From the NCBI GenBank assembly GCA_045635785.1, contig JAZTWJ010000100.1, positions 1 to 49,134 on the forward strand: DNA of 49,134 bases, written 5' to 3'. The notes beneath the pieces are model-generated. The model was not told the DNA's origin. It did no database searches and was given only the letters and a program-made list of their open reading frames with translations. Positions 21,001 through 47,924 of this stretch are shown here, piece by piece; the first letter of the stretch is position 1; each line of letters begins with the position of its first letter. The translations under genes were made by a program, and so were the position numbers. The stretch is from Candidatus Flemingiibacterium sp. (GTDB lineage Bacteria; Bacillota; Clostridia; Oscillospirales; CAG-272).

Positions 21001-21402
21001 GCCTCGTTCTACGATACAACCGCAGGCAAGGAAAGCGAGTTCTCCGATATCGAAAACCATTGGGCAGAGACGTTTATCGAGGAAGCGTATAATCTTGGCT
21101 TTGTTGATGGTTACGGTGATGGTACATTCCTCCCAGATCAGCCGATTACCAGAGCGGAGACGATGAAGATAGTCAACCGCACGCTCGACCGTGTGCCGCA
21201 TAAGGATTATTTGCTTGATTCGATGATCAAATGGCCCGACAACATGGATACGGAGAAATGGTATTACGCCGAGATTCAGGAGGCTACCAATTCTCACGAT
21301 TATACACATGATGATGCACATGAGGTTTGGACAGCTATTCTTCCCGTGCGCGATTGGCCGGCGCTTGAAAGTACATGGAAAGAAGAACATGACGGTGAAT
21401 GA
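15049..21402 (+). CDS. Large S-layer-anchored adhesin: signal peptide, VWA domain, InlB-B-like/Ig-like repeats, Cna-B-like domain, 3 SLH domains
   Basis: Signal peptide MKKRIAAMILSILMVV; MIDAS DLSGS...T...LTDG; about 9 G.[TF]..GW repeats alternating with about 6 Y.VEHY-type repeats; LTISKEV...FTNTY; three G[YF].DGT..P...ITRAE motifs. RBS AAAGGAG. Confidence 0.9.
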   Translation: MKKRIAAMILSILMVVSLIPISAVPVSADTPAALATNVMQNTNLSDGIVMSKYAQPHLVDGVPDGTVDITIEAHTTGVVKQTQTVTPTDIVLVLDLSGSMNDRQSSTTVTTYTEIYATETHYNWGIFGDYYHAGLGVNATRYVKVGSEYVTATRSNDDANGHEVWYYTSNNGRVYIYPAFENPNASLVNEREHNYAVVQFYNRTTSTVQGEQKITLMKNAVDEFINSTEAYNESVDVTDMHRIAIVKFGTAAYYNNSNLIAEGDNQNNRGYNYTQVVKGFTTVDEDGAAELIDDVDDLTPGGATAVDYGMNLARLLYANQDEEDVQGRKKVVIVLTDGSPTHNSNYEASVAGSAINHALELKEEGVTIYTISVEEDADATELGSDNTNQFMHYLSSNYPSASYANNRITVGTGSPTAGYYLTPDGTQSLDMIFDKISQEVGTPTITLGDEAILVDEISEYFTITDDINSVKVETLERISPTAWGIPVDVTDTMPPTVMDGTVTVRGFDFDSNYISNEPRIVDGKEFYGKMLVLTINVTPDYQKIDTHADEIAADGGFVPTNYGVAEVMSGTTPVAKVESPTIQANTVTYEVDGGEYATYYRFPGSNQTLIDEPTLKGHTFGGWSTTDVSIENNGFVMPADDITIVGEFTPVTRTVSYQYVGLEIPNRPALPDSHDEVYGATVKVADQPAKIDGYTFIGWYPQDEVLGTSSLTSFTMPDHDVVLLGRFTPANTTYKVEHYTENLNGTFKLEESETLSELTGDNVSAVIKNYEGFTFDEDYDDGKGNKTVASGVVAADGSLVLTLYYIRNEYEVTYEYVGTVPAAAEPSESELATYADTYKYGETVTIEDDASALGYIFTGWYSTGGTVTPTTQSFTMPNHAVTLRGYFTARTDVEYKVEHYFEDENGDYIIDTTKTETFEGTTGETITAQPLNIAGYTNNQNHADALLTGEVTVDDPNTQEDETLILKLYYERIAYKVTYGYEGYVPGTADPDAVGLADYTEYVKWGTWLTVKAPAEDSANDYEFVGWYRNNSAGKIPTTGFEMPMHNVELLGHFEHEGDHEYKIHHYFENENGEYVENTAELETLQAPEGAAVNTVPLNAEYYTFKADHADNKLTGNVIDNDEGLLELHVYYERTSYTVTYLYDGTVPSDADRLPEKQTYKWGQDVDIADAAEADGYTFIGWYRNNDGTKTVITELDMPKYNIELAGIFMANTDTPYTVKHYLETAVDGVYETTPYETESFTGTTDTEVTAAPIGIPSYTYNPIKSLATRTAKIAGDGSTVLELYYDRNEYSVTYVYTVAPEGAILPVDNDAHAHGTTVTVKNADDLSGYTFSGWSAVGVTVTGGTNLGGGAFTMPEHNVIFTGHYVANNAAYAVEHWVEDGDTYVLHGTSDIRIGEIGEKVTAVNHVIHGYSYSADVTESKIPAGSGIVFVNPARTVLEGTVSANEMLTLKFYYTADEYGVTYVIDGAVHPADAIVPGAAAYKYGTEVEVHEGYDIPGYIFSGWLTTDVTVSGDKFDMPANDVAFRGSFTADTVNYKIKYWQQVLEGTGTKEHNGKYYDEVTEDELTLSATTGHLVSAYPDYINTYEGFTATPEDNDEFYGYVTADDPATPEDETLVLNLYYDRLTYNVTYVYSGVAPEGVEIPDSYNKTGVVYGTAVKVENKLDAYDGFEFDGWHSTEVNITGGAESFTMPAKNVIIYGFHNGEYEVRYYVDDELYETYTVSVGAVHDVIEEPDGMTAFLGWENPLNVKENKFFEAIDNEFVMPWSDVEIYGEFDTVIPPVVLFGKLTISKEVVAPDDFTAPEEYTFDVYKVKGDELELKDTVVLKVGESVSLKLSPGDYRVSERKADVEGYTLTTVCSDEDAVVSVRNMEETSISFTNTYTEIMLEKDDHFAYIVGYPDGTVRPEANITRAEVVTIFFRMLTDAARNHYWAQTNKFIDVVATDWYNTAISTLANAGVLDGYDDGTFKPNDAITRAELIKIAASFYDTTAGKESEFSDIENHWAETFIEEAYNLGFVDGYGDGTFLPDQPITRAETMKIVNRTLDRVPHKDYLLDSMIKWPDNMDTEKWYYAEIQEATNSHDYTHDDAHEVWTAILPVRDWPALESTWKEEHDGE

Positions 21403-24030: not shown

Positions 24031-24242
24031 ACCACCTTTCTTTTCAAGTGATATCATCCATGATTTATATATTACTCACATTGTGAAGTAATATAGCAAA
24101 TCGACGTCCAACACGAAGACTTGCATGGTCAGAAAAGAAAGGATTACCTACCATGAAATGCCTGATTCTGAAAAAGGACAGAGGACCTCCGAGACATCCT
24201 GCTCTCAGAAAACAAAACAAAAATTTTTTGAAAGGAGTTTCA

Positions 24243-27200
24243 ATGCACATGAAACTTAATTTTAAGCGTCTTATGGCGATGTTTCTCAGCATCATGATGG
24301 TTGTCGGTATGCTGCCGACCATGGTGTTTGCTGAAGATGGAGTTGCGACGATTAATGAGTCTGATGTTGCTGCTAGCGCAGTTGTCAAAAGCGACACATG
24401 GGGCGGTATCGACTGGACTCTGACCGAGGACGGTACGCTCACCATTGCTCCTACAAAAGGAACACCTACTACCGACAATAGCGGTAAGTGGACCTATGAA
24501 GTCGGCCAGTGGCCCGAAGCTGTTATTTACAAACAAACCGGTGAAGCTGACGATATCGGCGGTTGGCCGTACAAATTGGATGCTATTAAGATCAAGAGTC
24601 TTGTTATAGAGGAAGGTGTTACCTCTATTGGCTCTTTTGCATTCAATGGAAAATACAGTTTGGATTTAAGTAATTTTGAAGGCGAAGTGGTTATTCCTTC
24701 TACCGTTACCTACATCGGTCAGGAAGCTTTCCAAGGCGTCCCCATGTCCAAACTTACCTTTGCTAAGGGCGGCACCGAGGAACTCTGCATCGCGCAGGGT
24801 GCATTCAAGAACCTGATCATCACAGAGCTTGCTTTGCCCGATGATCGCCCCGTACATTTCCACGCTTGGCTGATGCTTAACTCCACAAAGCTGGAGAACG
24901 TAACAATCCCTGCTACCTTGACCGGTGTTACCGGTACAAACCACGTGGATTACAACCATAATCCCAATGCGCAGACAGATGGCAAATCTTGGTATAGTGA
25001 GGTTCTGAATACTACAAATTCCGGCCTTAAGACCATCGCCTTCGGCAGTGCAGATGCTGCGAATTTGTTCTTTAATAGCGACAATGGGAATGCCAAGACT
25101 GAAGTTGGTGCTGCGACTGTTGCAAATGAGGCCGGAGCTATCACTTACTGTGAGTCTTTGGCTGTTGCTGCTGAGATCGCAAAGTCCGGCGATACCATCA
25201 CCCTGCTGAAGAATACCAGCGAAGAAGTTGAGATTCCTGCTGGTGTAACTTTGGACAAGGGTGAATTCACCGCGGACGGCGTAACCGAAGAAAAGAACTA
25301 CGTTGCACAGGTTGGCGATGACAAGTTCACAGACATCCAGGAAGCAATCAAGGCTGCTGCTCAAATCGGTGGCACTGTAACTCTCCTTACTGATATCGCC
25401 GTTGACACCGAGACGTATACCATTGCTGATGGGGAATCCATTACGCTGGATATGAATAGCAAAAAGATTACCGTTACAGATAATGCAGCGGCAAACTATG
25501 AGCTGTTCTATATCTATGGCGAAATGACCGTAATCGGCAACGGTACAATCGAATTGACCTCCACACACAACCGTGCTTGGAATGCAATGTCCGCTATTTT
25601 CCACAACCGCGGCGGTGTGCTGACTATTCAGGACGGTACGTTTAAGAACCTCGGTGGCACCGACATGGCTTGGGTTGTTGACAATAGCGGCAACTACTAT
25701 GGCGATGCTATCACTAACATTAAAGGCGGTACTCTTAGCTCTACTTATACCGCCATCCGTAACCGTATGGAGCAGAACAGCCACGGCGCAAGCGGCAAGG
25801 CTATTCTGAACATCTCCGGCGGTAAGATTGAAGGTACTACCAGTGCTGTATGGGCACAGGCTGCCAGTGAATCCGTGACTGCTCCTGCTACCGGCGAAAT
25901 CAACGTAACCGGTGGTCAAGTAGGTTTGATCAATACTGCACGCAGTGCAGGTGCAGAGTGCCTGACCACCATCTCCGGCGGTACTGTAGATAGCTTCAAG
26001 GGTGAAGTTGGCGAGCTAAAAGTTACAAGCACGGGTGAGGCTCCTGCAAATATTACTCTCCTTACAGCTGATGGTGAAGAAGTTAAAAACTATGTAGTTG
26101 ACGAAAATGGCGTTTACGTTGAAGCTCCTGCAGTACCTGTACTGTCCGGCTCCGGTACTGAGGCAGATCCTTATCAGATCGGATCTGTTGAAGACCTGAT
26201 CCTGTTCCGCAATAGCGTCAATGCTGGCGAAACCAAGTATAACGCTCCCGGCGTATATGTAGCTCTTACTGCTGACATTGATCTCGGCGCTATTGATAAC
26301 TGGGCACCTATCGGTACCTTTGATTATTCCTTCGATGGAAACTTCAATGGTAACGACAAAGTTATCAAGAATCTGAAGATCTCCGACAACACTGCTACTA
26401 ATGGTGAAGCATACCTCGGCTTCTTCGGCATTACCGCAAATAACGTTGTCGAGAACTTCGTAATCGAAAACGTTACCATTTCCAGCAACGGCCAGATCGT
26501 GGCTGCTGCAATCGCATATCCTTATTACACTACCGTGCGCAACATCACGGTACGCGGCGATATCGCTATCAAGGGTGGCAATTACACCGCCGGTGTTCTT
26601 GCTTACACCAGACTTTGCACCGATGCAAGCAACCTGACCGTTTCCGGTAATGCTAGTTCTTACATCACCGGCGCAAAGACTGTTGGCGGCGTGATCGCTG
26701 ACATTCAGATGAACCATGGTCTGACCGCAAACTACTCCAACTTCAGCGTTTCCGGTGTGAATATCACCGGTGAGATGAGTGTTGGTGGTATTTCCGGCAT
26801 TATTGCTGCGCAGGCCATCAATGGCGCTACTGTTAAGAACGTTACTTTGGTTTGCGGCGATGCTCGCGTGGGTGTTGTAGCAGGCTCTTTGGGCGGCGCT
26901 TCTACCATTTCCAATGTAACCGTTGAAAACGTAACCGGCGCAGCTGCTATCGTTGGTGCTGATTTTGACACCGGCGCAGTTGTTGAGGCCAAGATCGGCG
27001 ACAAGTATTACACCACCCTTGAGGCTGCTCTGGCTGCTGAGGTTGCGGGCGATGTAATTCTGCTTACTCCCTATGTGGTTGAAGCAGGCAACCCTGTTGT
27101 TCTTGACCTCCTGGGTAAGACTATTGTTGGTACAGACAATGCTACTGGCAACTACGGTCTGATCAATATTCAGCCCGGTGCTGACCTGACAATCAATGAC

Positions 27201-30200
27201 AGCGTTGGCGGCGGTAAGATCACTCTTGAAGCTACCAACGATCGTGAATTTAACGCTTACTCCTCCGTAATCTCTAACCAGCGCGGTAAGCTGACTGTAA
27301 ACGGTGGTACCATCGAGCACCTCGGCGGCACCGATATGGCTTACGGTATTGATAACCTGACCAATGGCAAGGGCACTTATGCTGAAACCGTTATCAACGG
27401 CGGTACCATTAAGTCCACCTATCGTGCGATCCGTCAGTTCCTCAACGGTACTGAAGCTCAGAATATCCTCACCGTCAACGGCGGTACCATCGAGGGCGCT
27501 AACAAGTCCATCTGGGCTCAGAACGCGAACGTATCTAATAACCCCGGTACGCTGACTGTAACTGCAGCTGCAGCTTTGTCCGGCGATGTTCTCCTGTCCG
27601 GATCCGGCGTTGACGAATGGACGCTCAGCCTTGCGGTTGCATCCGAGGCACTCAATGATGGATTTACTGTTACCCTGAGCAATGCTGCTACGTATGTTCT
27701 TAAGGAAGTTAACGGCACATGGGGTATTGCTGAAAATCCTGCAATCGGCGCTGTCGCTAAGATCGGCGATCAGTACTATGAAAGTGTTTCTGCGGCTCTT
27801 GATGCGGCTTACAACGCAGGCATGAAGGATGTTGTTATCACCCTGACCGGTGAAACTAACTCCAACACAACAGATAGTGTTGACCTTTATAGCAAGTACG
27901 GCAATGGAACTGCATTTAACACCATCACCTTCAAGCAGGAAGATGCTTCCAAGACTTACTATCTGTATCTTCTTTACACTGGATGGACAACCGGTAAGGT
28001 CGTCTTTGAAGGTGTAAACATTGTTGTTACTGGTCAGCTTTACGCAATCGGTAAGGTTGAGCTGATCAACAATTCCACAATCACTTGTTCCAGCGATACT
28101 GCCAACTTTGTATTCTATGGCGATATGGTCATCGAGCCCGGCTCCAAGTTTGTAAGCTTGGCTGACCGTATCAGCTCCGGCAGCTCCCTGACCGTTGACG
28201 GCGGCAGAACGGATGGTGCTTACAACACCACAGCAGACTACAAGACTGTTTGGCTGTATGTTGAAGCGGGCAACACCATGACCATCAAGAACGGTGCTTA
28301 TGTTGTCGCAAGCAACTACGAATTTGCCAAGCTGGATGTCAGCGGTACTGTTGACGTACAGGACTCCAGACTTGATGTATTCACTGAAATCATAATCGGT
28401 GCGAACGGTGTGTTCAAGGTAGACGGCGGCAGTGATATTAATACCAAAAGCATTACCGGTTCCGGTAAGATCGTTATCGATGTAGCCGGTATGACCGAAG
28501 GTACTGTTAAGGCATTCGAGAATGTCAACTTGTCCGGCTTCACCGGTACGGTTGAAGTGGCAAACGGCAATGGCTTGAAAGCCAAGATCGTTGGCGGCAA
28601 GCTGACTCTGGTTAAGGCTGATGATCCTGTTGTAGCACAGATCGGCACCGTAAACTACGCATCCATTCAGGCAGCTGTAAACGCAGCTGCAGATGGTGAT
28701 GTCATCACCGTAATCGCTGACATCGATCTTGCCAAGACCGAGCTTCAGCTTCTCGACGGCAGCTACGACACGTACTTCCTCGTGGAAGGCAAGACTGTCA
28801 CCATCGACCTCAACGGCAAGACCATCTCCGGCGCATATACCGGTTCTTCCATGCTGGTCGGCGTATTCTCCACTAATAATGGCGGTCACCTGACTCTCAC
28901 CGGCAACGGTACTGTAGACGTAACCGCAACAAATAAGGTTTACAGTCTGATCAGCAACTACACCGACGGCTGCTCGATCACCATCGAGAACGGTACCTAC
29001 AAACTGGATACGGCTGCGAATTGCCTGATCCATACCTCTCCTTCTGCCAATGAAGGCGTAGGCAATGTAGGTGTTGTCATCAAGGGCGGTAACTTCTACC
29101 TGGGCAACGTTGGCACAGGTACAAACGGACAGCCCTGGATCGTCAATGCCAACGAGTCGAACGCGAGACACGCCTGGGTCACCGGCGGTACCTACAACGC
29201 GAACGTCTTTAATCAGCATTGGATTCATGAAGTTCAGTGCGGCGGCAAATACGCTGCAAGAGACAACGGCGACGGTACCTGGACCGTAGTTCCCGCTGCT
29301 GCATACGTTGTTAAAACTGTTAGTACTTACAGTTACTTAGTCGGCTACGAAACCATCAATGAAGCAATCGCGGCTGCAAAAGCTGGCGAAAAAGTATTCA
29401 TTTTCGGATTTGATTCCAATGGTTATCAGACCAGCTACAATAAGGATCTGATTATCGACAAGGCAATCACTGTTGAAGGCGAGACTCTTGATGATGGCTA
29501 CCAGCTCGTTACTGTTAACGGCCAGTTGAGAATCACTGCGGACGGTGCGACCGTAAAGGGTCTGTATGTCTACGATGACGATACCGCAGCTTATATCAAT
29601 GCGAAAGACGTGCTGATTGAAGGCTGTGAACTGGTTGGCGCAAGTTGGGCAGGTCTCTATCAGAGCTACACTACCGGCACTGTAACCTTCAAGGACAGCA
29701 AAATCGTAGGTGCTACTTACGGTATCCACTTTGATGGTTATGACGGCGGCAATATCGTAATCGACAACTGTGTAATTCAGGGCTGGACCAGCTTTGCTTC
29801 CACAATCGACAAGGTTACGATTTCCGATTCTGAATTCTCTGACGAAGCTTACTACAAACTGCTCCGCTTCTATCAGGATGCAGAAGTGACCAACACCACC
29901 TTCCCCGCAGGTATGCGTATCGACTCCGGCGATGGTGGAACAGGTATGGACGGTATTGACCTGACGTTCGACGGCTGTAAGATGGCTGACGGCTCCGACT
30001 TCGCGGATGTATTCCCGGATGATGTACTCGCAAAGTCTGCTGTTTATGTGGACGGCAAACAGTTGAAGCCTGCTGTAGCAAAGATCGGAGACGTTGAGTA
30101 CACTGACCTTTCCGCTGCAGTCAAAGCTGCAACGACTGGGCAAACCGTTACCCTGCTCCGTGATATCAATCTCGGCACGGAATCAATTACCATCGGCGGC

Positions 30201-33200
30201 AAAGCATCCAATGTGACTATCGACGGTGATGGTCATACTATCACCTTTAATGATGTTACGGATAATTGGTATGACGCAGCAATTAACCCCGGTGGACCCA
30301 GTGCATTCACAGTAAAGAATGTTACAATCGAACTGAAGAATGCAGCTCCTAATTTTGCAGCATTCGATATGAAGCGCGGCGGCACTCTGGAAAACGTTAC
30401 CGTTAACGGTAAGTTTGGAAAGTGCGTAATTACATCCGGATCAACTCCTGTTACTGTAACAGGATGTACCTTCAATGGTGCTGACTGGGGTATTTATGCA
30501 GACGGTGCGTTCACCAATGTAAACGTAACCGGTACTACCTTCAACACCACCGGCGCAGCACTTCTTAACGGTAACACTGTATTTACCGGCAACATTATTG
30601 CTGCTAACAGCTATGTTGAATCCACTGCAGCTATTGACGTTTCCGCAAACTTCTGGAACGGCGATAATGCAACCGGTAATGCTCCTACCGCAGATCAGCT
30701 GAAGGGCGAAAAGATCATCTGCGATACTTACTACGCAACCAACACTAACGGCAAGCTTGATGACCTTACCGAATGTGGTGAGCCTGAAGAACCCGTTATC
30801 AAGGTTGTAGTTGGCAACGAGACCTATGAATACGGTCTCAGCAAGCTGGCTCTCCTGAGCAAGCTTATTGGCTCTGAAGCTAATGGTGATACAAAGATTA
30901 CTCTTTTGGATAATGTAACTCTTGAAAACGGTATCCAGGTAGCTGCTTATTGGGATTCTGATGCATTTGCGGCTGTTTCCAAGGCAGTTGAAATTGATCT
31001 GAACGGCAAGACGCTGAACGGCTTCATCCAGATCAACGGCAATGTTACGGCAACCATCAAGAACGGTACTGTTAACAACACCAGCAACTATCCTGCAATT
31101 GATGTTGGCGGCACTGCTACTCTTGAAGACATGACTGTAATATCTACAGACAAGGCATTCCGAACTGCTGACGGTGCTAAGCTCACTGTTAAGAAGGGTA
31201 CCTACAGCTCTGATCCTACTGCTTATGTAGCGGATAAATACATTGCAGTAAACAACGGCAACGGTACGTACAGCGTTGAAGTAGGCGGCACTTGGGGCGG
31301 TATCGACTGGATTCTGACCGACGATGGCACGCTCACTATTGCACCTACCAAGGGTACTCCTGTTCCGGATAAAAACGCTCCTACCAAGAGAACTTACGAG
31401 GTAGGTGAGTGGAGAGAAGCAGTTATCTACAAGAGCAACGGTAGCGCTTCCGCGATCGGCGGCTACCCCTACGATGTTAAAGCTGTTAAGACGCTTATAA
31501 TTGAAGAGGGCGTAACCACCATCGGTTCCTTTACCGCACAGTTCCCGAACCTTACCGGTAAGGTTGTAATTCCTTCTACCGTAACTTACATCGGCCAGGA
31601 GGCATTCCATAAGGCACCGATCACAGAGCTTATCTTTGCTGCTGACGGCACAGAGGGACTTTGTATTGCAAACGGTGCATTTAAGAAGATTCTTATCGAA
31701 GAAATTGCATTCCCGACTGACCGTGAATATATCCACATTCACCACTGGGCGTTTGGCGATTGTCCCCATCTCAAGGAAGCTTACATCCCCGGAGAAATCA
31801 CTAAGGTTTGGGGCGGTGAGCATGTCGATTACTTTGACAACTTTAATGCTCAGAGTAACGTAACTTGGGCTGATTACAGTTCAATCTTTACCGGTTGTAC
31901 TGCAATGGAGACCATTGCCTTTGAGACTGAGGATGCAAGAAATATGTTCTTTGCAAATAATCGCCAGAGTACCGATAAAGACTATATCGTAGCATATGTT
32001 GGTTTGACTGCGTATAATTCATTGGATAAAGCATTTGAAGTGGCTCAGAATGGCGAGACTGTCAAGCTGATTAAGACCGTTAATGATAATAAGACTGTAA
32101 AAGTTCCCGAAGGCGCAACTGTTGTTCTCGATCTCAACGGTAAGACTTTGAACGGCAGCATTCTTGCTCCCAATGCAAATCTGACTGTTCAGAACGGTAA
32201 GATCGTGAACAAAGATACCAGCGTCAGCGCAATCGAAATCAACGCTGGTAAACTTACTCTGACCAATGTTGAAATCGAATCTGCACGTCATGCAGTACGT
32301 ATCGACGGTGCAGTTGAAGCAACCATCAACGGCGGTAAGTACAAGGGCGGTATCGGCGGTACTGCTACTCTGCATGCAGTGAATGCTTCCGGCGGTGCCA
32401 AAGTCACCATCGAGTCCGGTGAATTCTACGGACCCAAGGGCGCTACTGCTGACAGCGGTGCTGCAGTAATGGTACAGGCGAATACCACCGTCATCATTAA
32501 TGGTGGTAACTTCTCCAATGGCAAGAACAACACTCTGGTTGCTAAGACGGATGCTGTTCTGACTATTTACGGCGGTACGTTCGACCAGGATCCCAGTGCT
32601 TATGTGGCTGATGGCTATGAAGCAGTAAAGGGCGCAGATAGCCTCTATACTGTAGTTAAGAGCAAAGCTAAGGTTGCACAGATCGGTGATAACTCCTTTG
32701 ATACCCTCGCTGACGCAATCAAAGCGGCACAGCCTGGCGATACCATTGAGCTTCTTGCTGAGGTAAACGAAAACGTAACCATCGACAAGAACCTCACCAT
32801 CGACGGTGCAGACAAGAACTACACCGGCACGATGACTGTTAACGCAAAACTGAATGTTACCATTCAGAACGTGAACTTTGTTAAAGGCTGCATCAATGAT
32901 CCTGGTGACGCTCACGGTTACCTGACTGTTAAGGATTGTGATTTCGACGGTGTCGATAAGTCCATCGGTTATGCAATCACTGTTCGCGGTGGTGACAAAG
33001 TTGTCATCGAAAACAGCACTGCAACGAATTACAGCACCGGTATGCTCTACATTCCTTCTTCTGTAGCAACTATCAGCGTGAAGGATGTTGAAGTTAGCAA
33101 CGTTGCTGCAGCATTCAACATTTCTTACTCCGGCAACGGTACTTTCGAAAATGTTGAGCTGACCAATGTTACTTACGGTCTCCATGTTCAGAACCACGGT

Positions 33201-34364
33201 ACAAGAACCTTTACTTTGAAGGGCTGGGATGCTGATATTCAGTACCCCATCTACGTTCAGGTTAAGGGGACTGCAACTGTAAACTTCGCATTTGAAGGCG
33301 CAAACGACTTCGGTGGTGGAACTGTTGCTCTTAACAACTATGGTATGCTCGTACTCGCTGCAACTGATGCAACTCTTACTGCTGTCGAAGGCCTCAATAT
33401 CAATATGGTAGCAGAGCTTGCTGAAGATTATGAAGTAGAGTATGGTGAAGGCGTTTATAAGGCAGTTAAGATTGAGAAAGTCGAGCTGTTTAGTTTGACC
33501 AGTGCAAATCTCAAACTTGGTTCCAGCTTGACTATGAACTTCAACATTAACACTTCGTATCTGGTATCCGATATGAATCATTATGCTGAAATCGTTCGGA
33601 TTGGTGCTGATGGTTCTACTGATACAGTAAAGATCGCCCAGAAAGATTGGGAGGCTCGTGAGGATTTGGGTGCGACATTCTTCCGTTTTGGATATGAAAA
33701 CCTCATGGCATATATGATGAATGATACGCTTCAAGTTACAATCTACAACGATAAAGATGTAGCGGTTAGTGAAGTATGGATAGACAGTGTGCTCAATTAT
33801 GCGGAACGTCTCTATGCCGCATATCCCTCCTACGGTACACTTCTCGTTGATATGCTCAACTACGGTGCAGACTGCCAGGTTTACTTTGAGTACGCAACTG
33901 ACAAGCTTGTGAATAGTAATATTTCGGATGAGTGGAAGAACATAGCATCTGAAATCCCCACTCTGACCAATAATCAGATAAAGGGTGAGAATTACAGAAG
34001 CACATCGCTTGTTTGCCAAAGCACGCTGATTTTGACCTTCTACTTTGAACATCTGACTCCTGACATGATCGCAAAGATTACCTATACCGATGCGTATGGT
34101 GAGAATCAGAGTTTGACTGTGGATGGTTCCGAATTCTACTATAACGATTCGATAGGATGCTATGGTGTTGATGTACCTGTAAATGCCTACGATGCACAGC
34201 AGCTTATCAAATGCCAAGTATATAGCGGAGACTCCGTATTTGCTGAAGCATCTGATAGCGTTGAAAGCTATCTCTGCAGAGCTATTGCGGCATACCCCAA
34301 TACTGCTGTATTTAAGAGTGTTGCAAAGTATGTATTCTCAGCAAAGAAGGCTCTGATCGATTAA
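24243..34364 (+). CDS. Giant secreted repeat protein (~3373 aa): two BspA-like LRR modules, GLUG/ZmpB-like segment, beta-helix-like repeats, duplicated C-terminal domain
   Basis: RBS AAAGGAG; signal peptide ending PTMVFA; TWGGIDW.LT.DGTLTIAPTKGTP...IEEGVT.IGSF...IPSTVTYIGQEAF twice; GSGTEADPYQI...LTADIDL...W.PIG; recurring VA.IG...Y.....A...A..G..V.LL linkers. No LPxTG, SLH or dockerin motif seen. Confidence 0.88.
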   Translation: MHMKLNFKRLMAMFLSIMMVVGMLPTMVFAEDGVATINESDVAASAVVKSDTWGGIDWTLTEDGTLTIAPTKGTPTTDNSGKWTYEVGQWPEAVIYKQTGEADDIGGWPYKLDAIKIKSLVIEEGVTSIGSFAFNGKYSLDLSNFEGEVVIPSTVTYIGQEAFQGVPMSKLTFAKGGTEELCIAQGAFKNLIITELALPDDRPVHFHAWLMLNSTKLENVTIPATLTGVTGTNHVDYNHNPNAQTDGKSWYSEVLNTTNSGLKTIAFGSADAANLFFNSDNGNAKTEVGAATVANEAGAITYCESLAVAAEIAKSGDTITLLKNTSEEVEIPAGVTLDKGEFTADGVTEEKNYVAQVGDDKFTDIQEAIKAAAQIGGTVTLLTDIAVDTETYTIADGESITLDMNSKKITVTDNAAANYELFYIYGEMTVIGNGTIELTSTHNRAWNAMSAIFHNRGGVLTIQDGTFKNLGGTDMAWVVDNSGNYYGDAITNIKGGTLSSTYTAIRNRMEQNSHGASGKAILNISGGKIEGTTSAVWAQAASESVTAPATGEINVTGGQVGLINTARSAGAECLTTISGGTVDSFKGEVGELKVTSTGEAPANITLLTADGEEVKNYVVDENGVYVEAPAVPVLSGSGTEADPYQIGSVEDLILFRNSVNAGETKYNAPGVYVALTADIDLGAIDNWAPIGTFDYSFDGNFNGNDKVIKNLKISDNTATNGEAYLGFFGITANNVVENFVIENVTISSNGQIVAAAIAYPYYTTVRNITVRGDIAIKGGNYTAGVLAYTRLCTDASNLTVSGNASSYITGAKTVGGVIADIQMNHGLTANYSNFSVSGVNITGEMSVGGISGIIAAQAINGATVKNVTLVCGDARVGVVAGSLGGASTISNVTVENVTGAAAIVGADFDTGAVVEAKIGDKYYTTLEAALAAEVAGDVILLTPYVVEAGNPVVLDLLGKTIVGTDNATGNYGLINIQPGADLTINDSVGGGKITLEATNDREFNAYSSVISNQRGKLTVNGGTIEHLGGTDMAYGIDNLTNGKGTYAETVINGGTIKSTYRAIRQFLNGTEAQNILTVNGGTIEGANKSIWAQNANVSNNPGTLTVTAAAALSGDVLLSGSGVDEWTLSLAVASEALNDGFTVTLSNAATYVLKEVNGTWGIAENPAIGAVAKIGDQYYESVSAALDAAYNAGMKDVVITLTGETNSNTTDSVDLYSKYGNGTAFNTITFKQEDASKTYYLYLLYTGWTTGKVVFEGVNIVVTGQLYAIGKVELINNSTITCSSDTANFVFYGDMVIEPGSKFVSLADRISSGSSLTVDGGRTDGAYNTTADYKTVWLYVEAGNTMTIKNGAYVVASNYEFAKLDVSGTVDVQDSRLDVFTEIIIGANGVFKVDGGSDINTKSITGSGKIVIDVAGMTEGTVKAFENVNLSGFTGTVEVANGNGLKAKIVGGKLTLVKADDPVVAQIGTVNYASIQAAVNAAADGDVITVIADIDLAKTELQLLDGSYDTYFLVEGKTVTIDLNGKTISGAYTGSSMLVGVFSTNNGGHLTLTGNGTVDVTATNKVYSLISNYTDGCSITIENGTYKLDTAANCLIHTSPSANEGVGNVGVVIKGGNFYLGNVGTGTNGQPWIVNANESNARHAWVTGGTYNANVFNQHWIHEVQCGGKYAARDNGDGTWTVVPAAAYVVKTVSTYSYLVGYETINEAIAAAKAGEKVFIFGFDSNGYQTSYNKDLIIDKAITVEGETLDDGYQLVTVNGQLRITADGATVKGLYVYDDDTAAYINAKDVLIEGCELVGASWAGLYQSYTTGTVTFKDSKIVGATYGIHFDGYDGGNIVIDNCVIQGWTSFASTIDKVTISDSEFSDEAYYKLLRFYQDAEVTNTTFPAGMRIDSGDGGTGMDGIDLTFDGCKMADGSDFADVFPDDVLAKSAVYVDGKQLKPAVAKIGDVEYTDLSAAVKAATTGQTVTLLRDINLGTESITIGGKASNVTIDGDGHTITFNDVTDNWYDAAINPGGPSAFTVKNVTIELKNAAPNFAAFDMKRGGTLENVTVNGKFGKCVITSGSTPVTVTGCTFNGADWGIYADGAFTNVNVTGTTFNTTGAALLNGNTVFTGNIIAANSYVESTAAIDVSANFWNGDNATGNAPTADQLKGEKIICDTYYATNTNGKLDDLTECGEPEEPVIKVVVGNETYEYGLSKLALLSKLIGSEANGDTKITLLDNVTLENGIQVAAYWDSDAFAAVSKAVEIDLNGKTLNGFIQINGNVTATIKNGTVNNTSNYPAIDVGGTATLEDMTVISTDKAFRTADGAKLTVKKGTYSSDPTAYVADKYIAVNNGNGTYSVEVGGTWGGIDWILTDDGTLTIAPTKGTPVPDKNAPTKRTYEVGEWREAVIYKSNGSASAIGGYPYDVKAVKTLIIEEGVTTIGSFTAQFPNLTGKVVIPSTVTYIGQEAFHKAPITELIFAADGTEGLCIANGAFKKILIEEIAFPTDREYIHIHHWAFGDCPHLKEAYIPGEITKVWGGEHVDYFDNFNAQSNVTWADYSSIFTGCTAMETIAFETEDARNMFFANNRQSTDKDYIVAYVGLTAYNSLDKAFEVAQNGETVKLIKTVNDNKTVKVPEGATVVLDLNGKTLNGSILAPNANLTVQNGKIVNKDTSVSAIEINAGKLTLTNVEIESARHAVRIDGAVEATINGGKYKGGIGGTATLHAVNASGGAKVTIESGEFYGPKGATADSGAAVMVQANTTVIINGGNFSNGKNNTLVAKTDAVLTIYGGTFDQDPSAYVADGYEAVKGADSLYTVVKSKAKVAQIGDNSFDTLADAIKAAQPGDTIELLAEVNENVTIDKNLTIDGADKNYTGTMTVNAKLNVTIQNVNFVKGCINDPGDAHGYLTVKDCDFDGVDKSIGYAITVRGGDKVVIENSTATNYSTGMLYIPSSVATISVKDVEVSNVAAAFNISYSGNGTFENVELTNVTYGLHVQNHGTRTFTLKGWDADIQYPIYVQVKGTATVNFAFEGANDFGGGTVALNNYGMLVLAATDATLTAVEGLNINMVAELAEDYEVEYGEGVYKAVKIEKVELFSLTSANLKLGSSLTMNFNINTSYLVSDMNHYAEIVRIGADGSTDTVKIAQKDWEAREDLGATFFRFGYENLMAYMMNDTLQVTIYNDKDVAVSEVWIDSVLNYAERLYAAYPSYGTLLVDMLNYGADCQVYFEYATDKLVNSNISDEWKNIASEIPTLTNNQIKGENYRSTSLVCQSTLILTFYFEHLTPDMIAKITYTDAYGENQSLTVDGSEFYYNDSIGCYGVDVPVNAYDAQQLIKCQVYSGDSVFAEASDSVESYLCRAIAAYPNTAVFKSVAKYVFSAKKALID

Positions 34365-42330: not shown

Positions 42331-43266
42331 ATGAACAATAACATAAAACTGAATTGGAAAAAGATTCTGACCGCCGTCCTTGCGGCACTGCTGATTCTTG
42401 CGCTGTTCCGTATCGCATCCCTTTCAAGCGAGATGGATACGCTGAAAAACAGCCTCAACAACCTGCATTCCGAGATCAATATTATCCGAAACAACGTCAG
42501 CAGCATCTATAACACCGTGGATGAACGGCTGAAAAAGGAAGCAAGCCTCCTCGCCTCGGTGGAGACCGGCTATGGCGTATTGAATCACGATACCCATGAA
42601 GTAAGCGTTGAGCTATCAATCGTCCCAAAGACGGTCACGGACGATATGGAGCTGTACGTCACGATCGGAGATACCGAGCATAAATGCGAACGGTCAAATA
42701 CAACCTTTACCGCATCCGTTCCGGTGTATCTTTTCCTTGATTATGACGAGCATCTGACGCTGACCATCAAATCTCAAGCAGGCACGCAGACGGAGATCTT
42801 GGAGGATGTCCGCATCGGCAGCCTGTATTCCTCCTATCTGCCGCAGATCTATGCAAGTCTTGAAAACAACACCAATCTGAAGTACGGCAAGCTGAAAATC
42901 TACGGCAGTCTCCATGTGGACTATAAACCCACACCGTCGGGCGTGGATGTTGTAAGATCCGAGCTTATCACCGAGGTGAACGGCGTGGAAACCGATCGCC
43001 GTGTGCTGACGGGAGATTTGACGAAAAATCATTTCACCGAGCAGGTTGAAATGACCGTGGATGCCACGTTCGATGATCACGTGGTGATCTATCTGCTCTC
43101 CAAGGATTCGCTTGGTTATATCCACAAAAATATTGTGGAAGAATGGTATGAAACAAATGGGTCTGTATCCAAGTGGGATGAAACAGCCGCAGTTGCCCCC
43201 GAACCTCATGCACCCATGGTTGATGCGATTTACGATAAGAATGGAAATCTGCTGAACGAGGAATGA
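42331..43266 (+). CDS. Membrane-anchored hypothetical protein with an N-terminal coiled coil
   Basis: One hydrophobic N-terminal segment, a heptad-like stretch (MDTLKNSLNNLHSEINIIRNNV), then beta-rich sequence. Confidence 0.75.
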   Translation: MNNNIKLNWKKILTAVLAALLILALFRIASLSSEMDTLKNSLNNLHSEINIIRNNVSSIYNTVDERLKKEASLLASVETGYGVLNHDTHEVSVELSIVPKTVTDDMELYVTIGDTEHKCERSNTTFTASVPVYLFLDYDEHLTLTIKSQAGTQTEILEDVRIGSLYSSYLPQIYASLENNTNLKYGKLKIYGSLHVDYKPTPSGVDVVRSELITEVNGVETDRRVLTGDLTKNHFTEQVEMTVDATFDDHVVIYLLSKDSLGYIHKNIVEEWYETNGSVSKWDETAAVAPEPHAPMVDAIYDKNGNLLNEE

Positions 43267-43546
43267 GAGAAATACACAAAAAATTACAGTGATATGATTT
43301 TGGGGGAATATAAACATGAAACGGCTATGACCGTTTCTGCAGAGCTTGATCGGATGGTCATGGAGAAGATCGATCAAGTGAAAAAATAAGCGAAGTTCAG
43401 TCCACGAGAAACAAAATCTTGTGGGCTGATTTGCTCTATAATTCGGTCATCTCATATCATATTCGTTCCATTTTTTGCAATGAACGCAGATTTTTTGCGA
43501 GATATATAGGTGAAGAGCTCTACCATCATCCGAGGGAGGTGCAAGC

Positions 43547-44122
43547 ATGGGAAAATCGAATCAAACTCCTGATGACCGCATCGTGGAATTATACTGGGCG
43601 CGGTCGGAGGACGCCATCCGCGAAACTGCCGCCAAATACGGCGAATACTGCCACTATATTGCTTACAATATTCTCTATAACCGCGAGGATGCCGAGGAAA
43701 GCGTGAACGACACCTATCTTGACGCATGGGAAAGTATGCCGCCGCACAAGCCGTCAATTCTCTCCACATTCCTTGGAAAGATCACGCGGCGTATCTCCAT
43801 CGACCGATGGCGCAAAAAGCACGCAGGCAAACGAGGTGGCAGACAGATGGACTTGATTTTGGACGAGCTTGAGGACTGCGTGACAGCTTCATACGATGTG
43901 GAAACAGTGATCGAGCAGAAAGAAACGGCACGGATTATCGAAGAATTTCTTGATAGTCTTCCCGCTACCGAACGCCGTGTGTTCCTCAGACGCTATTGGT
44001 ACATGGATTCCATAGCAAAAATTGCACTGGATTATGACTTCACCGAGAGCAAAACCGCATCCATGCTACACCGCACGAGAAAGAAACTGCGTGACAAATT
44101 AGAAATGGAGGGGTGCCTATGA
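43547..44122 (+). CDS. ECF-type RNA polymerase sigma factor
   Basis: RSEDAI, IAYNIL..REDAEESVNDTYL.AW, FLGKITRR.SIDRWR, FLRRYWYMDSI.KIA...L.RTRKKLR; RBS GGGAGGT. Confidence 0.93.
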   Translation: MGKSNQTPDDRIVELYWARSEDAIRETAAKYGEYCHYIAYNILYNREDAEESVNDTYLDAWESMPPHKPSILSTFLGKITRRISIDRWRKKHAGKRGGRQMDLILDELEDCVTASYDVETVIEQKETARIIEEFLDSLPATERRVFLRRYWYMDSIAKIALDYDFTESKTASMLHRTRKKLRDKLEMEGCL

Positions 44123-45561
44123 AAAAAGAACAGATCGTTGATATGATCGGGGAGGCTCCCGACAAATTCGTAAAGGATGCAAAGGAATACAAAAAACGAC
44201 CCATTCCTCGATGGTCGAAGTGGGTTGGCAGCATTGCTGCGGTGCTTGCGATTATGATTCTTGTAAACAATATGCCTTCAGTCCCGCTCGCCATTTCGGC
44301 AAATGCGGTCAGCGTGGCTTCGGAATCAAGGAAGCTGGAACGCCCAAGAAACGGCAGTGATTCCGATTTGTTCAATGATTGGATAGCACAGCGTGACGCT
44401 CGTGAAGATGTGGTAGAATCCGCACGGAGTCCCATTTCCGATTTTGCCGGATTGGTCTCGGGCGGTGTGCTTTCCGGCGTGGATGACACCAACCGTGTGT
44501 GGTCGCCCATCAATGCCTATATCGCCCTTGCCATGACCGCTGAGCTGACGGGCGGCGAAACACAGGCAGAGCTGCTGGAGCTTCTCGGTGCAGAAGATCT
44601 CTCCGAGCTTCGCAGTCGGATCAGCGCGGTGTGGGAGGAGATCTACGAGGACAACGGCAAGGAGATCAGCGTGCTCGCCAACTCCCTGTGGCTTGACAAA
44701 GATGTGGAATATGTGCAGGAGAAAATGGACTCCATTGCCTACGATTACTACGCATCGGTGTATCAAGGGGATCTCGGCAGCGAGAAAACCAACCGTGCCA
44801 TGACAAACTGGATGCGGAATCAGACCGGCGGACTCCTGAAAGACAGGACGCAGAATTTGCAGCTTGAACCCAAAGATCAGGTGCTTGCCATTGTTTCTAC
44901 GATCTATTTTCAGTCCCAGTGGAAGGATGAGTTTAGTAAAGCAAGCAATAAGCAGGCAATATTCCATGCGGTCAGCGGAGATGTGGAGTGTACCTTCATG
45001 AACAAGAAGGAATATCACATGAACTACTTCTGGGGCGAGGATTACGGTGCCGTGCAGATGGTACTTGAAAACGGTTCGTATATGTGGTTCATTCTCCCCG
45101 ACGAAGATAAGACCGTGGACGATGTGCTGGCGAGCGATGAATACATGAAAATGATCACGCAAGAATATCTTCGCTCCGGTGAGGAAGCCAACCGCAAGTG
45201 GATGAAGGTCAACCTCTCCGTCCCGCAGTTTGACGTTTCGGGCAGTACCGATCTGAAAAACGCACTGCAGAACGCAGGGCTTAATAAGATCTTTGAGCTG
45301 TACGGCAATGATTTCTCGCCCTCCATCATCAAGATAAATGAAAAGAATGATCCCGCCTACCTTGACAGCATCAACCAGGACACCCGCGTGAAGATTGATG
45401 AAAAGGGTGTCGCCGCCGCAAGCTACATTGAACTGAACCTCGGTGCCGGTGCCGCCATGCCGCCCGATGAGATTATTGATTTCGTCCTCGACAGACCGTT
45501 CGTGTTTGCCGTTACAAAAAGTCAGATCCCGTTGTTCGTGGGCACGGTGAATATGCCGTAA
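44119..45561 (+). CDS. Serpin with a cytoplasmic anti-sigma-like N-terminus and a TM helix
   Basis: ATGA overlap with the sigma gene; IVDMIGEAPDKFVKDA, basic patch, hydrophobic helix. Serpin motifs WSPINAYIALAM, ANSLW, NW..NQTGG, TIYF..QW...F, VPQF, DEKG.AAAS, DRPFVF, PLFVG.V. Confidence 0.9.
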   Translation: MKKEQIVDMIGEAPDKFVKDAKEYKKRPIPRWSKWVGSIAAVLAIMILVNNMPSVPLAISANAVSVASESRKLERPRNGSDSDLFNDWIAQRDAREDVVESARSPISDFAGLVSGGVLSGVDDTNRVWSPINAYIALAMTAELTGGETQAELLELLGAEDLSELRSRISAVWEEIYEDNGKEISVLANSLWLDKDVEYVQEKMDSIAYDYYASVYQGDLGSEKTNRAMTNWMRNQTGGLLKDRTQNLQLEPKDQVLAIVSTIYFQSQWKDEFSKASNKQAIFHAVSGDVECTFMNKKEYHMNYFWGEDYGAVQMVLENGSYMWFILPDEDKTVDDVLASDEYMKMITQEYLRSGEEANRKWMKVNLSVPQFDVSGSTDLKNALQNAGLNKIFELYGNDFSPSIIKINEKNDPAYLDSINQDTRVKIDEKGVAAASYIELNLGAGAAMPPDEIIDFVLDRPFVFAVTKSQIPLFVGTVNMP

Positions 45562-45569
45562 CAATACAG

Positions 45570-45610
45570 AATCTCCCCGTGAAGCGATCGAAGCTTACGG
45601 GGAGATTTTT
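45570..45610. terminator. Terminator between the convergent serpin units
   Basis: AATCTCCCCGT...ACGGGGAGATT followed by a T-run. Confidence 0.75.
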
Positions 45611-45650
45611 AATTTAGATTTACGGATATATCTTGTCATTCACCTTCCCG

Positions 45651-46325
45651 TCACCAGTCGCTGTAGCGGAATTCAATTCGGTTTTCATCCTCAAAAATCA
45701 AGACGAAGCTCCATTCGCCGTGGTTGTAACCGCCGTCCCAAAACAGCATATAGCGGACGGCATCCGTTTCGCCGCTTGACCAATTCAATTCATTATGCCA
45801 ATCCGCATCACTACCGATCCATACTGCTTTTTCGGAAAGCACTTCCGACCAAATTTCCAGCTCGTTTTCGCTTGTCTCAAAGGACAGCTTGAATTCTTCA
45901 CCGCCCTGCAAAAACTGCGGAAGGTAGGAAAACTGCACGTTCTCCACGCCATTCGGTATAGCAGACGGAAAGATGTTATCAACTCCGTCTTCGTCCTTGA
46001 TCTTGGAAAATGCTCTGCCGTAATAGCGGATATCGGTTACTTCAAATGTGACGTGCTGAAAAAAGAGAATAAACGCATAGAATGCCGAAGCAAAAAACAA
46101 AACGACAGAAAGAATGACGGTGAGGACTGTTGTGGCTTTTGCGGACATGATTTTCGTATATGCCAAAATTGAAACGGCAAGCAAGATCAGCGTGGGTAAG
46201 AGCAGTAATGCGATTTTCAGATACAACGGCTGAACAAAGCTGCCAAAAAGTAAGGCTGCAAGCAAAAAACACAGAAATGCAATTCCTGCCATGATAAGCG
46301 GGAACTTGATACACGGTCGAGCCAT
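45651..46325 (-). CDS. Hypothetical membrane protein (3 N-terminal TM helices + soluble domain)
   Basis: Hydrophobic segments in residues ~10-90; starts 2 nt after the lipoprotein serpin stop, with GGAGG upstream. Confidence 0.75.
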   Translation of the reverse strand: MARPCIKFPLIMAGIAFLCFLLAALLFGSFVQPLYLKIALLLLPTLILLAVSILAYTKIMSAKATTVLTVILSVVLFFASAFYAFILFFQHVTFEVTDIRYYGRAFSKIKDEDGVDNIFPSAIPNGVENVQFSYLPQFLQGGEEFKLSFETSENELEIWSEVLSEKAVWIGSDADWHNELNWSSGETDAVRYMLFWDGGYNHGEWSFVLIFEDENRIEFRYSDW

Positions 46326-46327
46326 CG

Positions 46328-47584
46328 TTATCCCTCCACATCCATCATCGTGCCGATGAAGAACGGGATGTTATTTTCGCAGTCGATGAGCATATACACA
46401 AACGGGCGATCTAGGATGACTTCCTTTTGATCAATGGGTTCCATTGCCCCTTCGGTCTTCATCTCCACCACAGTCGCCGCACCTGCCTTTGTTCCTTTTT
46501 CGTCTACGGAAATGAAGGTCTTGTGCAGTACACGGCTGATGGAGATATTGCCATCGATAGAGGTGCCGAGCTTTGTGAAATCTGCGGCAGATCCGTCAAA
46601 CGCATCGGTCATGCCCATGGATTTGAGGATATCTCCCATTTCGATGTTATATTCACTCTCAAACTTGGGTATGCCGGTATAGACAGGAGTGCTTTCTGCA
46701 CCTGCAAGCAGTTTCGTCAACTTTTCGCCGTCAAGGGATTCCACATACTCTGTAACCGACACGTTTTTATCAGGCAGAAGTGCCGCGAATGCGTATTTGC
46801 GGTCGGCGTAATATTTGATAAATCCGGTGGCGTTCTTATCCTCCAGATATTTGCTCTCGGTGGAGTACATCATATCGACCGAACGGTTTGTGCCGTCCTC
46901 TGTGATGAAGTTGTTCTTTCTCACTTCATCGGTTTTGTAGATGTTCTGCCACTCTGCATCAAAGGCAAGGGCATTGACGAGATACATGACCGCATCGGCA
47001 GAAATCTCGTCGAGGATGTTTTTGATCATGCCGTCGGTCTCATCCTCTACCCATGCGTTGATGGCATCAAGCGTCGTCTTGTCAAAGGGAACGCCGTACA
47101 GATTTGCATCATAATAATCCTTGTTCTTCTGCAGAAAATCCTTGCTCACAGTAAGGCGTCCGTCGTCGATGAACCATATCGAATTGGCAAGGTGAAGCTT
47201 GTACTTTTCCTCGTCAGGCAGATCGTTCATGTAGCTGAGCGCCCATAGATTCAGCTCATCTACGGGCATACCCAGCACCGCTTCCATCTGCGAAAGCGTG
47301 TTTCCATCAGCGCCGTTTGCTGTCATGGACAGTGCCACAAGGACCGACAGTGGAGAGATCAGTATATTGGCACTTTCCGAGGAAAGTGCGCCTTCCTCAA
47401 CGCTTTCCTTGATCAGCCGCACAGCAAAATCGGTCACTGCGTTATTCCTGTCAAGCTTTGAGTCTACGACGACCTTGTTCCCCTTGATGCCGTCCATCAG
47501 ATCGGTGGCGTTGTTGTTACCGCAGCTGAAAAGTGCGGTTGTAAGGATGATGATCGTTAGTGCGAGTGCGATAAGTCTTTTCAT
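46328..47584 (-). CDS. Lipoprotein serpin
   Basis: Lipobox LFSC; ISPLSV..ALSM..NGA.G.T, ANSIW, INAWV...T.GMI, LVNALAF.A.W, IPKF, hinge DEKGTKAGAAT, DRPFVY, PFFIG. RBS AAGGAGG. Confidence 0.94.
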   Translation of the reverse strand: MKRLIALALTIIILTTALFSCGNNNATDLMDGIKGNKVVVDSKLDRNNAVTDFAVRLIKESVEEGALSSESANILISPLSVLVALSMTANGADGNTLSQMEAVLGMPVDELNLWALSYMNDLPDEEKYKLHLANSIWFIDDGRLTVSKDFLQKNKDYYDANLYGVPFDKTTLDAINAWVEDETDGMIKNILDEISADAVMYLVNALAFDAEWQNIYKTDEVRKNNFITEDGTNRSVDMMYSTESKYLEDKNATGFIKYYADRKYAFAALLPDKNVSVTEYVESLDGEKLTKLLAGAESTPVYTGIPKFESEYNIEMGDILKSMGMTDAFDGSAADFTKLGTSIDGNISISRVLHKTFISVDEKGTKAGAATVVEMKTEGAMEPIDQKEVILDRPFVYMLIDCENNIPFFIGTMMDVEG

Positions 47585-47924
47585 GTGCGTTCCTCCTTAG
47601 TCGTAGAAAAATTCATAATCGGGCGAAGCTGTCCATTCCTCTGTGGCGGCGAGAATGCGTTGGATGCTTCGTCTTACTCTATATCTCGTTATATTTTTGC
47701 GTTGGTTTTATCCTGTAGATATATTATACCATACATTTTTGAAATTATCTTGAACAACGCAAAAAGACTGCCGATTTTGGCGGCAGCCTTTCGTATGATT
47801 TATGATTCCTGACCCGAATAAATCGGATGAAAACCAATAAAATCGCCGAGTGAGAGCTTGCTGCACTTCCCGATGTCCGTTCCAAGTTACCGATTTATCA
47901 TTTGTCGACACATAGCGAAATGTT

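Follow-up and report, generated by a model that had tools for sequence, protein, structure and literature searches.

The 49,134-nt stretch of DNA analysed here (the window; contig JAZTWJ010000100.1, positions 1 to 49,134) comes from a 1.8 Mb, 89% complete assembly of Candidatus Flemingiibacterium sp. and carries a real and conserved two-gene module, in which an extracytoplasmic function (ECF) sigma factor is paired with a probable anti-sigma factor whose outer end is an unusual serpin. The sigma factor, P0002 (191 aa; 43547..44122, + strand), has the Pfam Sigma70_r2 and r4_2 domains of an ECF factor and scores above the TIGR02937 cut-off. The putative anti-sigma factor, P0001 (480 aa; 44119..45561, +), has a serpin as its ectodomain. 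The two genes form one unit: they are translationally coupled through an ATGA overlap of the sigma stop codon TGA (44120-44122) with the P0001 start codon ATG (44119), preceded by a conserved promoter and followed by a terminator. That the coupled sigma factor and membrane serpin work as a protease-triggered switch is a proposition on which the evidence is evenly balanced.

The terminator-like hairpin (45568..45609, no strand assigned) has a folding energy of -25.7 kcal/mol (z -7.1; 0/200 shuffles as strong), closes the sigma/membrane-serpin unit and separates it from a convergent unit on the - strand. The latter consists of a lipoprotein serpin, P0003 (418 aa; 46328..47584), and, behind it, a 224-aa protein (45651..46325) with three transmembrane (TM) segments. 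The first-pass annotation of this DNA had described the four genes, the ATGA overlap, the convergent serpin with a lipobox followed by the 3-TM protein, and P0001 as a cytoplasmic segment, a basic patch, one TM helix and a complete serpin. All of this was reproduced: the genes lie at the same places, the topology agrees with hydropathy and the Pfam Serpin match, the lipobox reads LFSC21, and the 3-TM protein shows three hydrophobic peaks within residues 5-87. The 3-TM protein matched no Pfam or other named family, its closest relatives being unnamed Bacillota clusters at 0.95.

P0002 consists of sigma2 and sigma4 domains only, is shorter than 200 aa and gave no Pfam match to region 3, which places it among the ECF (group 4) sigma factors; its closest solved structure is SigW (5wuq, E 4e-12). 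Of 7997 candidates scored in a protein search with P0001, 2518 were relatives, the best 120 of them 59-100% identical to it. The source genomes of the relatives are Clostridia metagenome-assembled genomes (MAGs), several with animal-gut titles. A sigma gene lies directly upstream of the serpin relative in 10/10 GTDB loci and in 3/3 metagenome loci. Broader samples were taken at the family level (some serpin in 100/151 genomes; 30 loci, and 2 more by region), at the order level with P0003 as the query (67/251 genomes positive; 30 loci) and at the phylum level with a profile of the P0001 clade (7/401 genomes positive, own genome included). Adjacency was counted on 73 serpin loci, most of them with flanks of 1.0-1.5 kb, after leaving out the own loci, the fragments L012 and L026 that have no N-terminus and a likely duplicate, L032.

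All 27 serpins bearing an acidic peptide before the TM helix (about 30-85% identity) lie -23 to +44 nt from a sigma or sigma-like gene, whereas direct adjacency to a sigma gene is seen in 0/46 serpins of the signal-peptide or lipoprotein type. One of the 27 (L027/L051) follows a gene for a helix-turn-helix (HTH)-sigma4 protein instead of a full sigma factor. Adjacency by chance was thus ruled out, the difference being far beyond chance, and the coupling of sigma factor and serpin claimed in the first-pass annotation holds in other genomes, the metagenome loci included. It weighs on the other side that the serpin loci are kin, so that 27/27 is a pattern and not a series of independent events. 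No match covering 80% of P0001 was found in plasmids. Two loci of the set deserve separate mention. In L051:7321-11112 (G076:C55), the genes stand in tandem: an ECF and anti-sigma pair is followed by an XRE-HTH domain fused to a sigma4-like half, and this in turn by the peptide-TM-serpin protein. The module is also present, with 80% identity, on a 2.5-kb contig (L002) of a MAG that bears the title Candidatus Cryptobacteroides; the contig is short, and mis-binning may explain it instead of transfer.

The N-terminus of P0001 consists of about 30-35 hydrophilic residues ending in a basic patch (KKRP.PRWSK); residues 1-35 (44119..44223, +) comprise a putative sigma-binding peptide (1-21) and this patch. 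The single hydrophobic segment (Kyte-Doolittle peak 1.7) covers residues about 36-52 and appears as a helix at 32-50 in the structure model; together with a signal-peptidase-like A61-N62-A63, a candidate site-1, it is encoded at 44224..44307 (+). An extension of about 55 residues separates the TM helix from the serpin. P0001 thus has the topology of single-pass anti-sigma factors, with a short cytoplasmic N-terminus, one TM helix and an extracellular C-terminus, and its gene stands at position +1 to the ECF gene and is coupled to it, as is usual for anti-sigma factors.

The peptide is not confined to serpins. Residues 1-48 of P0001 also match four non-serpin proteins, 4/4 of which follow an ECF gene of the same group, and when 25 such N-termini were combined in a profile, it hit 6370 clusters formed at 50% identity (E<=1e-3), the hit lying at the start of the protein in 150/150 among the matches listed. 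A Pfam serpin was recognised in 10 of the 66 listed module proteins of at least 200 aa, 8 of these serpins being complete; an Ig-like domain was recognised in 1, and the other 55 matched no family. The peptide-TM module thus occurs on about 6,370 clusters with swappable ectodomains and is therefore very probably an anti-sigma domain. Judged by its position, topology and modularity, the segment of residues 1-35 highly probably binds and inhibits the cognate sigma factor, which upholds the anti-sigma reading of the first-pass annotation with the binding itself deduced from these features. The peptide has no named family in Pfam, NCBIfam or the ESM Atlas (Atlas matches 0.84 or lower). The own genome contains two further ECF/anti-sigma-type pairs with other, unnamed ectodomains (C30:6568-8180 and C10:435-2179). 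A weak search of its 4762 N-termini with a hidden Markov model of the fused serpins' first 30 residues placed the anti-sigma factor of the former pair third (E 0.06), below an unrelated protein, and did not return that of the latter. Paralogous ECF factors of the same group number three in this genome (C30:6568-8180, C10:435-2179 and C88:1-144).

In the sigma tree, the sister sigma factors closest to the P0002 clade, at 61% identity, are paired with proteins other than serpins. Two other peptide types carry serpins of the P0001 clade behind distant ECF factors (L046/L049 and L055), so that at least three different N-terminal peptide types occur with serpins, behind different ECF groups. Same-clade serpins behind distant sigma factors, with differing N-terminal peptides, were found in L046, L049, L055, L104 and L105, and this suggests repeated fusion. 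The sigma tree and the serpin tree are both quick trees.

The serpin domain of P0001 (Pfam PF00079, residues 122-480, E 1e-56) is a complete fold with an intact loop and is the sole extracellular domain of the protein. In the serpin tree it belongs to a clade separate from the tengpin/siropins (SH-like approximate likelihood ratio test, SH-aLRT, 100), and fused and lipoprotein forms interleave within one serpin clade. The inhibitory hinge consensus of serpins has E at P17, G at P15, T/S at P14 and small residues at P12-P9; Val at P14 is found in some inhibitory serpins. In P0001, the hinge and the reactive-centre loop run from E428 (P17) to P449 (45400..45465, +). The hinge (GVxAASY) fits the consensus at P17, P15 and P12-P10 and departs from it at P14 (Val) and P9 (Tyr); the alternating hydrophobic pattern at P8/P6/P4 is kept, and counting puts the predicted P1 at Gly444 or Ala445. 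The distance from P17 to the conserved Pro is a normal 32 residues, the range in both clades being 28-34. Over 120 sequences, the hinge (entropy 0.40 bits) and the reactive-centre loop (0.54) are the least variable parts, the serpin body standing at 1.01.

The region after the TM helix is conserved as well. A Pro...A-x-A follows the helix, with A61 kept in 115/120 and A63 in 108/120 close homologues. In the structure model, residues 61-70 are confidently placed (predicted local distance difference test, pLDDT, 84) and include a strand at 62-65 that overlaps the A-x-A. The model as a whole best matches latent and cleaved serpins, that is, loop-inserted forms. Signal peptidase (SPase) I and M50 proteases are encoded in the genome; PrsW was not found in the 89%-complete genome.

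These features can be arranged into a mechanism. The cytoplasmic tail of P0001 (residues 1-35) would, with high probability, hold the sigma factor at the membrane. An elastase- or subtilisin-like protease would then cut near G444/A445 and the loop would insert into sheet A, a step rated slightly better than even. By analogy with tengpin and RsiV, loop insertion might displace the N-terminal strand (residues about 61-70) packed on the serpin body. Following RsiV further, signal peptidase could cut the exposed juxtamembrane site after A63, and an M50 site-2 protease could cut the TM stub and release the sigma factor. Acting at TGCAAT-N16-CGAG, the freed sigma factor would re-transcribe its operon, a positive feedback that would yield more serpin, and might also drive a gene for a chagasin-domain inhibitor elsewhere in the genome. 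The wider proposal is a widespread class of gut Clostridia in which a serpin serves as a transmembrane protease receptor, suicide capture of a protease drives the loop insertion that pulls an N-terminal clamp off the SPase site, and a protease-defence regulon of the freed ECF factor (its serpin and the chagasin-type inhibitor) is switched on, the sensor being mounted on at least three sigma/anti-sigma pairs; it is put forward tentatively, as somewhat less probable than not.

Several observations weigh against protease sensing. P14 is Val/Cys and P9 Tyr/Phe in 29/29 members of the clade, 6/6 unfused ones included; since the unfused members have the same hinge, the non-canonical hinge is not sensor-specific and inhibition is uncertain. 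The conserved shutter triad S56/N186/H334 defined in PMC8198886 is replaced in P0001 by N132/S260/Q420, by alignment to tengpin. Among the fused rows, position 56 is Asn in 21/23 and position 186 Ser/Thr in 22/23, and H334 is changed to Q in about half. Because neither the hinge nor the shutter is canonical, and the unfused relatives share this, protease sensing is proposed here and not asserted. A credible A-x-A is present in just 12/23 fused serpins of the tree set, and the lipoprotein relative L052 also fits the pattern, so the A-x-A may be structural. The long Pro/Thr/acidic linkers of 7/23 fused serpins cast doubt on a tight mechanical coupling. A loop-inserted model was obtained for the canonical P0003 as well, so such a model is generic, does not tell a sensor from an inhibitor, and in the case of P0001 indicates compatibility only. 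Finally, operons split into sigma factor, anti-sigma factor and lipoprotein serpin indicate that some serpins may be simple outputs. Taken with the features that favour it, serpin-mediated protease sensing by P0001 has about an even chance.

The same observations give some weight to the idea that the N-terminus holds the sigma factor while the serpin is tethered cargo, derived from the fusion of an anti-sigma gene to a downstream serpin output, the sigma factor being released by clipping of the exposed linker or by other envelope stress and not through a conformational change of the serpin. The split operons are common (13/46), fused and lipoprotein forms share a clade, long flexible linkers occur and the nearest sister sigma factors have non-serpin ectodomains, points that speak for it. 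In the P0001 subfamily, however, a short linker is found, and conservation of the juxtamembrane segment equals that of the serpin body (entropy 0.94 vs 1.01), and no other extracellular domain is left to sense a signal. The cargo explanation is accordingly judged rather improbable, although it is the best placed of the alternatives, and it would still leave the system protease-responsive if the linker acted as bait.

The promoter bears on what the sigma factor would control. Its -35 element TGCAAT (43476-43481) and -10 element CGAGA (43498-43502), separated by a 16-nt spacer (43476..43502, +), lie 45-70 nt 5' of the sigma start as TGCAAT-N16-CGAG, a motif kept in 9/9 of the close relatives whose upstream DNA is available. 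A matrix derived from the relatives only puts the own site first in the genome (24.6 vs 18.9 genome-wide) and at rank 1/1723; all ranks were computed over 1723 upstream regions with a matrix without the downstream bonus. The conserved promoter upstream of its own gene suggests autoregulation of P0002. A sigma-70 scan around the locus gave nothing above chance. The rank-2 site heads a chagasin-type I42 gene (C107:34550-35668; L110:2551-3669, +), whose product is a secreted protein of 372 aa with a copper-amine-oxidase N domain and a chagasin I42 domain (Pfam E 2e-12). The middle of this product looks RsiV/DUF3298-like by eye and has no Pfam match. Against a role for the gene in the regulon, its site (TGCAAT-N16-CGATT) has a mismatched -10 and at 13.7 narrowly outscores the third site (13.3), and a search of 150 family genomes gave two partial N-terminal matches but no full-length orthologue. 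Because of the imperfect -10, the small margin and the missing full-length orthologue, the I42 inhibitor gene is regarded as a lead.

The neighbouring serpin has a different history. P0003 (lipobox LFSC21, Pfam Serpin E 6e-87) is 24% identical to P0001 and belongs to a different clade of the serpin tree; its hinge GTKAGAAT, shutter S/N/H and N-terminal xDLM cap mark it as a predicted inhibitory serpin of the tengpin/siropin-like type. Its closest relatives are the third genes of sigma/anti-sigma/serpin operons (L058, L062-L064, L074). Upstream of it, at 47597..47665 (-), lies a gene remnant, the last ~22 codons of a domain found in ECF-serpin operons, which among the loci examined matches, with 58% identity over 26 aa, the C-terminal end encoded by the gene preceding the serpin in L063 (E 3e-5). 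Elsewhere, this domain occurs as an anti-sigma ectodomain (L063/L091) or a lipoprotein (L095). As an unnamed domain of ~150 aa (L091:3543-4250, L095:4944-5519, L115:2732-3316), it recurs in ECF or serpin operons, and its tail is the remnant of the window. The orphan ECF-type promoter of P0003, TAAAAC-N16-CGAGA (47684..47710, -), is one base from the TGAAAC promoters of the sigma operons in L058, L062 and L064. It ranks 277/1723 under the P0002 matrix and 1/1723 under a matrix for Lys-type sigma factors, falling to rank 53 once the three closest operons leave that matrix. Given the upstream remnant, the Lys-type promoter and the position of its relatives as third genes in sigma operons, we read P0003 as the leftover of an ECF operon from which the sigma and anti-sigma genes have been lost, beside a recombinase at the contig end.

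This reading bears on the claim of the first-pass annotation that P0002 induces the lipoprotein serpin, and on a circuit in which P0002 would drive both P0003 and the 3-TM gene. The promoter of P0003 is of ECF type with the same -10 (CGAGATATA) and spacing, it ranks 6/1723 with a pooled matrix of 18 sites, and no cognate Lys-type sigma factor was found in the 89%-complete assembly, where one contig-end sigma fragment is untypable; for this last reason, and because the -10 elements are identical, a weak cross-reading by P0002 is possible. Its rank under the P0002 matrix speaks against the circuit, as does residue 171 of the sigma factor. In 23 sigma-promoter pairs, with sites assigned by hand and two further sigma factors without an assignable site left out, Lys171 goes with a -35 ending in C in 8/8 and other residues in 0/15; P0002 has Ala. 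No P0003 orthologue or 3-TM homologue was found beside the sigma-serpin module in the loci examined, some of which are short contigs, and the four-gene arrangement is absent from every one of them. A conserved four-gene cluster was therefore rejected, the induction claim did not hold up against the ranks and the remnant, and the four-gene circuit is considered unlikely.

Thirteen of the 46 unfused serpins lie one gene behind a sigma gene, and an ECF-type promoter GGAAC-N16-CGTC precedes 10/46 (four from one genus) against 12/1723 background regions; judging from these positions and promoters, many unfused clostridial serpins here are ECF outputs. The third serpin of the genome, a lipoprotein (C22:14687-15898, L098), has its own ECF-type promoter GGAAC-N16-CGTCTA and is for this reason probably read by another ECF factor. 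Lipoprotein serpins in L062, L066, L069, L072 and L078 have frames of 565-592 aa with about 150 extra residues after the serpin.

An invariant reactive loop is unusual in inhibitory serpins that chase varied proteases. The low variability of the P0001 loop, the altered shutter triad and the bulky P9 would all suit a non-inhibitory receptor, in which either the binding of a non-protease ligand (a small molecule, glycan or peptide) or a slow latency timer in the fold would control the anti-sigma factor; non-inhibitory serpins do exploit the stressed-to-relaxed (S-to-R) change for ligand handling (PMC8233489). On the other hand, P17, P15, P12-P10, the P8/P6/P4 pattern and the loop length are kept, and lipoprotein members without a sigma link keep the same hinge, so this explanation is rated marginally below the four-gene circuit. 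Least to be expected is an absence of regulation through the serpin, the N-terminus being a long signal peptide or anchor cut constitutively at the A-x-A, the serpin a secreted product and the sigma factor controlled otherwise: the conserved Pro...A-x-A after the hydrophobic segment, which lends something to the cleaved signal peptide considered in the first-pass annotation, and the lack of a Pfam or NCBIfam anti-sigma match speak for it, but the acidic peptide of 21 residues is confined to positions behind ECF genes (27/27 vs 0/46) and heads thousands of unrelated ectodomains, and 11/23 fused forms have no credible A-x-A. The protease-triggered switch is retained as the preferred reading.

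The remainder of the window is varied. Just 5' of the sigma promoter, at 42331-43266 (+), lies an orphan gene whose 311-aa product has a coiled coil and a single TM helix; no family and no homologue among the loci searched was found for it. No RNA feature is listed for 43300-47800. At the contig end (48209-49134, -), a serine recombinase is spread over two frames, one with the Recombinase and zinc-ribbon domains and the next with a tail of 120 aa; the related locus L001 has recombinases and two group II intron reverse transcriptase genes beside the sigma-serpin module. Two giant surface proteins are encoded downstream of a transfer-messenger RNA gene (12754-13100): one of 2117 aa with vWA, InlB-type repeats and SLH (15049-21402, +) and one of about 3400 aa with BspA leucine-rich repeats and a pectate-lyase-like adhesive domain (24153-34364, +).

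The role of prokaryotic serpins has been described as enigmatic, prokaryotes being without the regulatory networks that eukaryotic serpins serve (PMC8233489). If the protease-triggered switch is real, this view would be directly contradicted by a serpin that gates a sigma factor, and RsiV, a lysozyme receptor, would have its equivalent for proteases. Intestinal inflammation raises proteolysis, and gut commensals could in this way detect host or microbial proteolysis. Protease reporters could be programmed by exchanging the reactive loop. Even under a weaker alternative, many clostridial serpins would be tied to ECF regulons, and an uncharacterised serpin clade with a rewired shutter is defined.

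Among characterised serpins, tengpin, a Group T bacterial serpin, is the best PDB sequence match of P0001 (E 3e-27) and shares the serpin fold. The N-terminal extension of tengpin packs on the body, its strand capping a patch that s1A takes over after the S-to-R change (PMC1905895), and the P0001 strand at the A-x-A recalls this cap. P0003 belongs with the tengpin/siropins, its xDLM motif resembling the tengpin NLM (cap residues, PMC1905895); P0001, unlike them, stands in a separate clade, with an altered shutter and GVxAASY as its hinge. Known targets of siropins are elastase and proteinase 3 (PMC5127057, PMC8233489). No characterised member of the P0001 clade was found in the portions of the literature covered, where the serpins described are not attached to a sigma regulator. 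In Bifidobacterium breve, exposure to papain induces the surface serpin (PMC8012564, after Alvarez-Martin 2012), so that a protease induces a serpin there, as is proposed here; in that case, however, a separate two-component system acts, without an ECF factor, and the serpin is not the membrane regulator (PMC8012564). Corticosteroid- and thyroxine-binding globulins use the S-to-R change as a switch and not for inhibition, a precedent for a serpin that reports proteolysis (PMC8233489), but they are soluble eukaryotic carriers with no transmembrane signalling or transcriptional output.

On the sigma side, the Firmicutes groups ECF232, ECF265 and ECF266 (Casas-Pastor 2021) have single-TM anti-sigma factors at position +1 with a conserved N-terminus and exchangeable ectodomains, and subgroup-specific AAC/CGT-type promoters, and are similar in these respects (PMC7826278). 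The main text of this reclassification and the portion of its supplement covered mention no serpin, and no description of a serpin-tipped anti-sigma factor was found in the literature searched, subscription journals and bioRxiv supplements lying outside its scope. The closest functional parallel is sigmaV-RsiV of Bacillus subtilis, Clostridioides difficile and Enterococcus faecalis (ECF30), where an ECF gene is likewise followed by a single-pass anti-sigma factor, sensing being deduced in the present case. The RsiV ectodomain is both sensor and inhibitor of one host enzyme (PMC5014341, PMC6066255), and RsiV is cut by signal peptidase at site-1 and by RasP at site-2 (PMC6066255, PMC5014341). 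The -35 is similar, TGCAACA in ECF30 (PMC7826278), whereas the -10 here is CGAG and not CGTC. Unlike RsiV, P0001 has a serpin (PF00079) in place of DUF3298/DUF4163 and, in the model, a strand instead of amphipathic helices after the A-x-A. P0001 has no DUF4179 match, and in its relatives the domain appears below threshold in 6/25 (best E 0.036); with this and the different ectodomain, membership of the RsiV family was rejected. A covalent suicide mechanism would, moreover, replace reversible binding. By analogy, the sigma-serpin pair may thus work like sigmaV-RsiV without being a member of the RsiV family.

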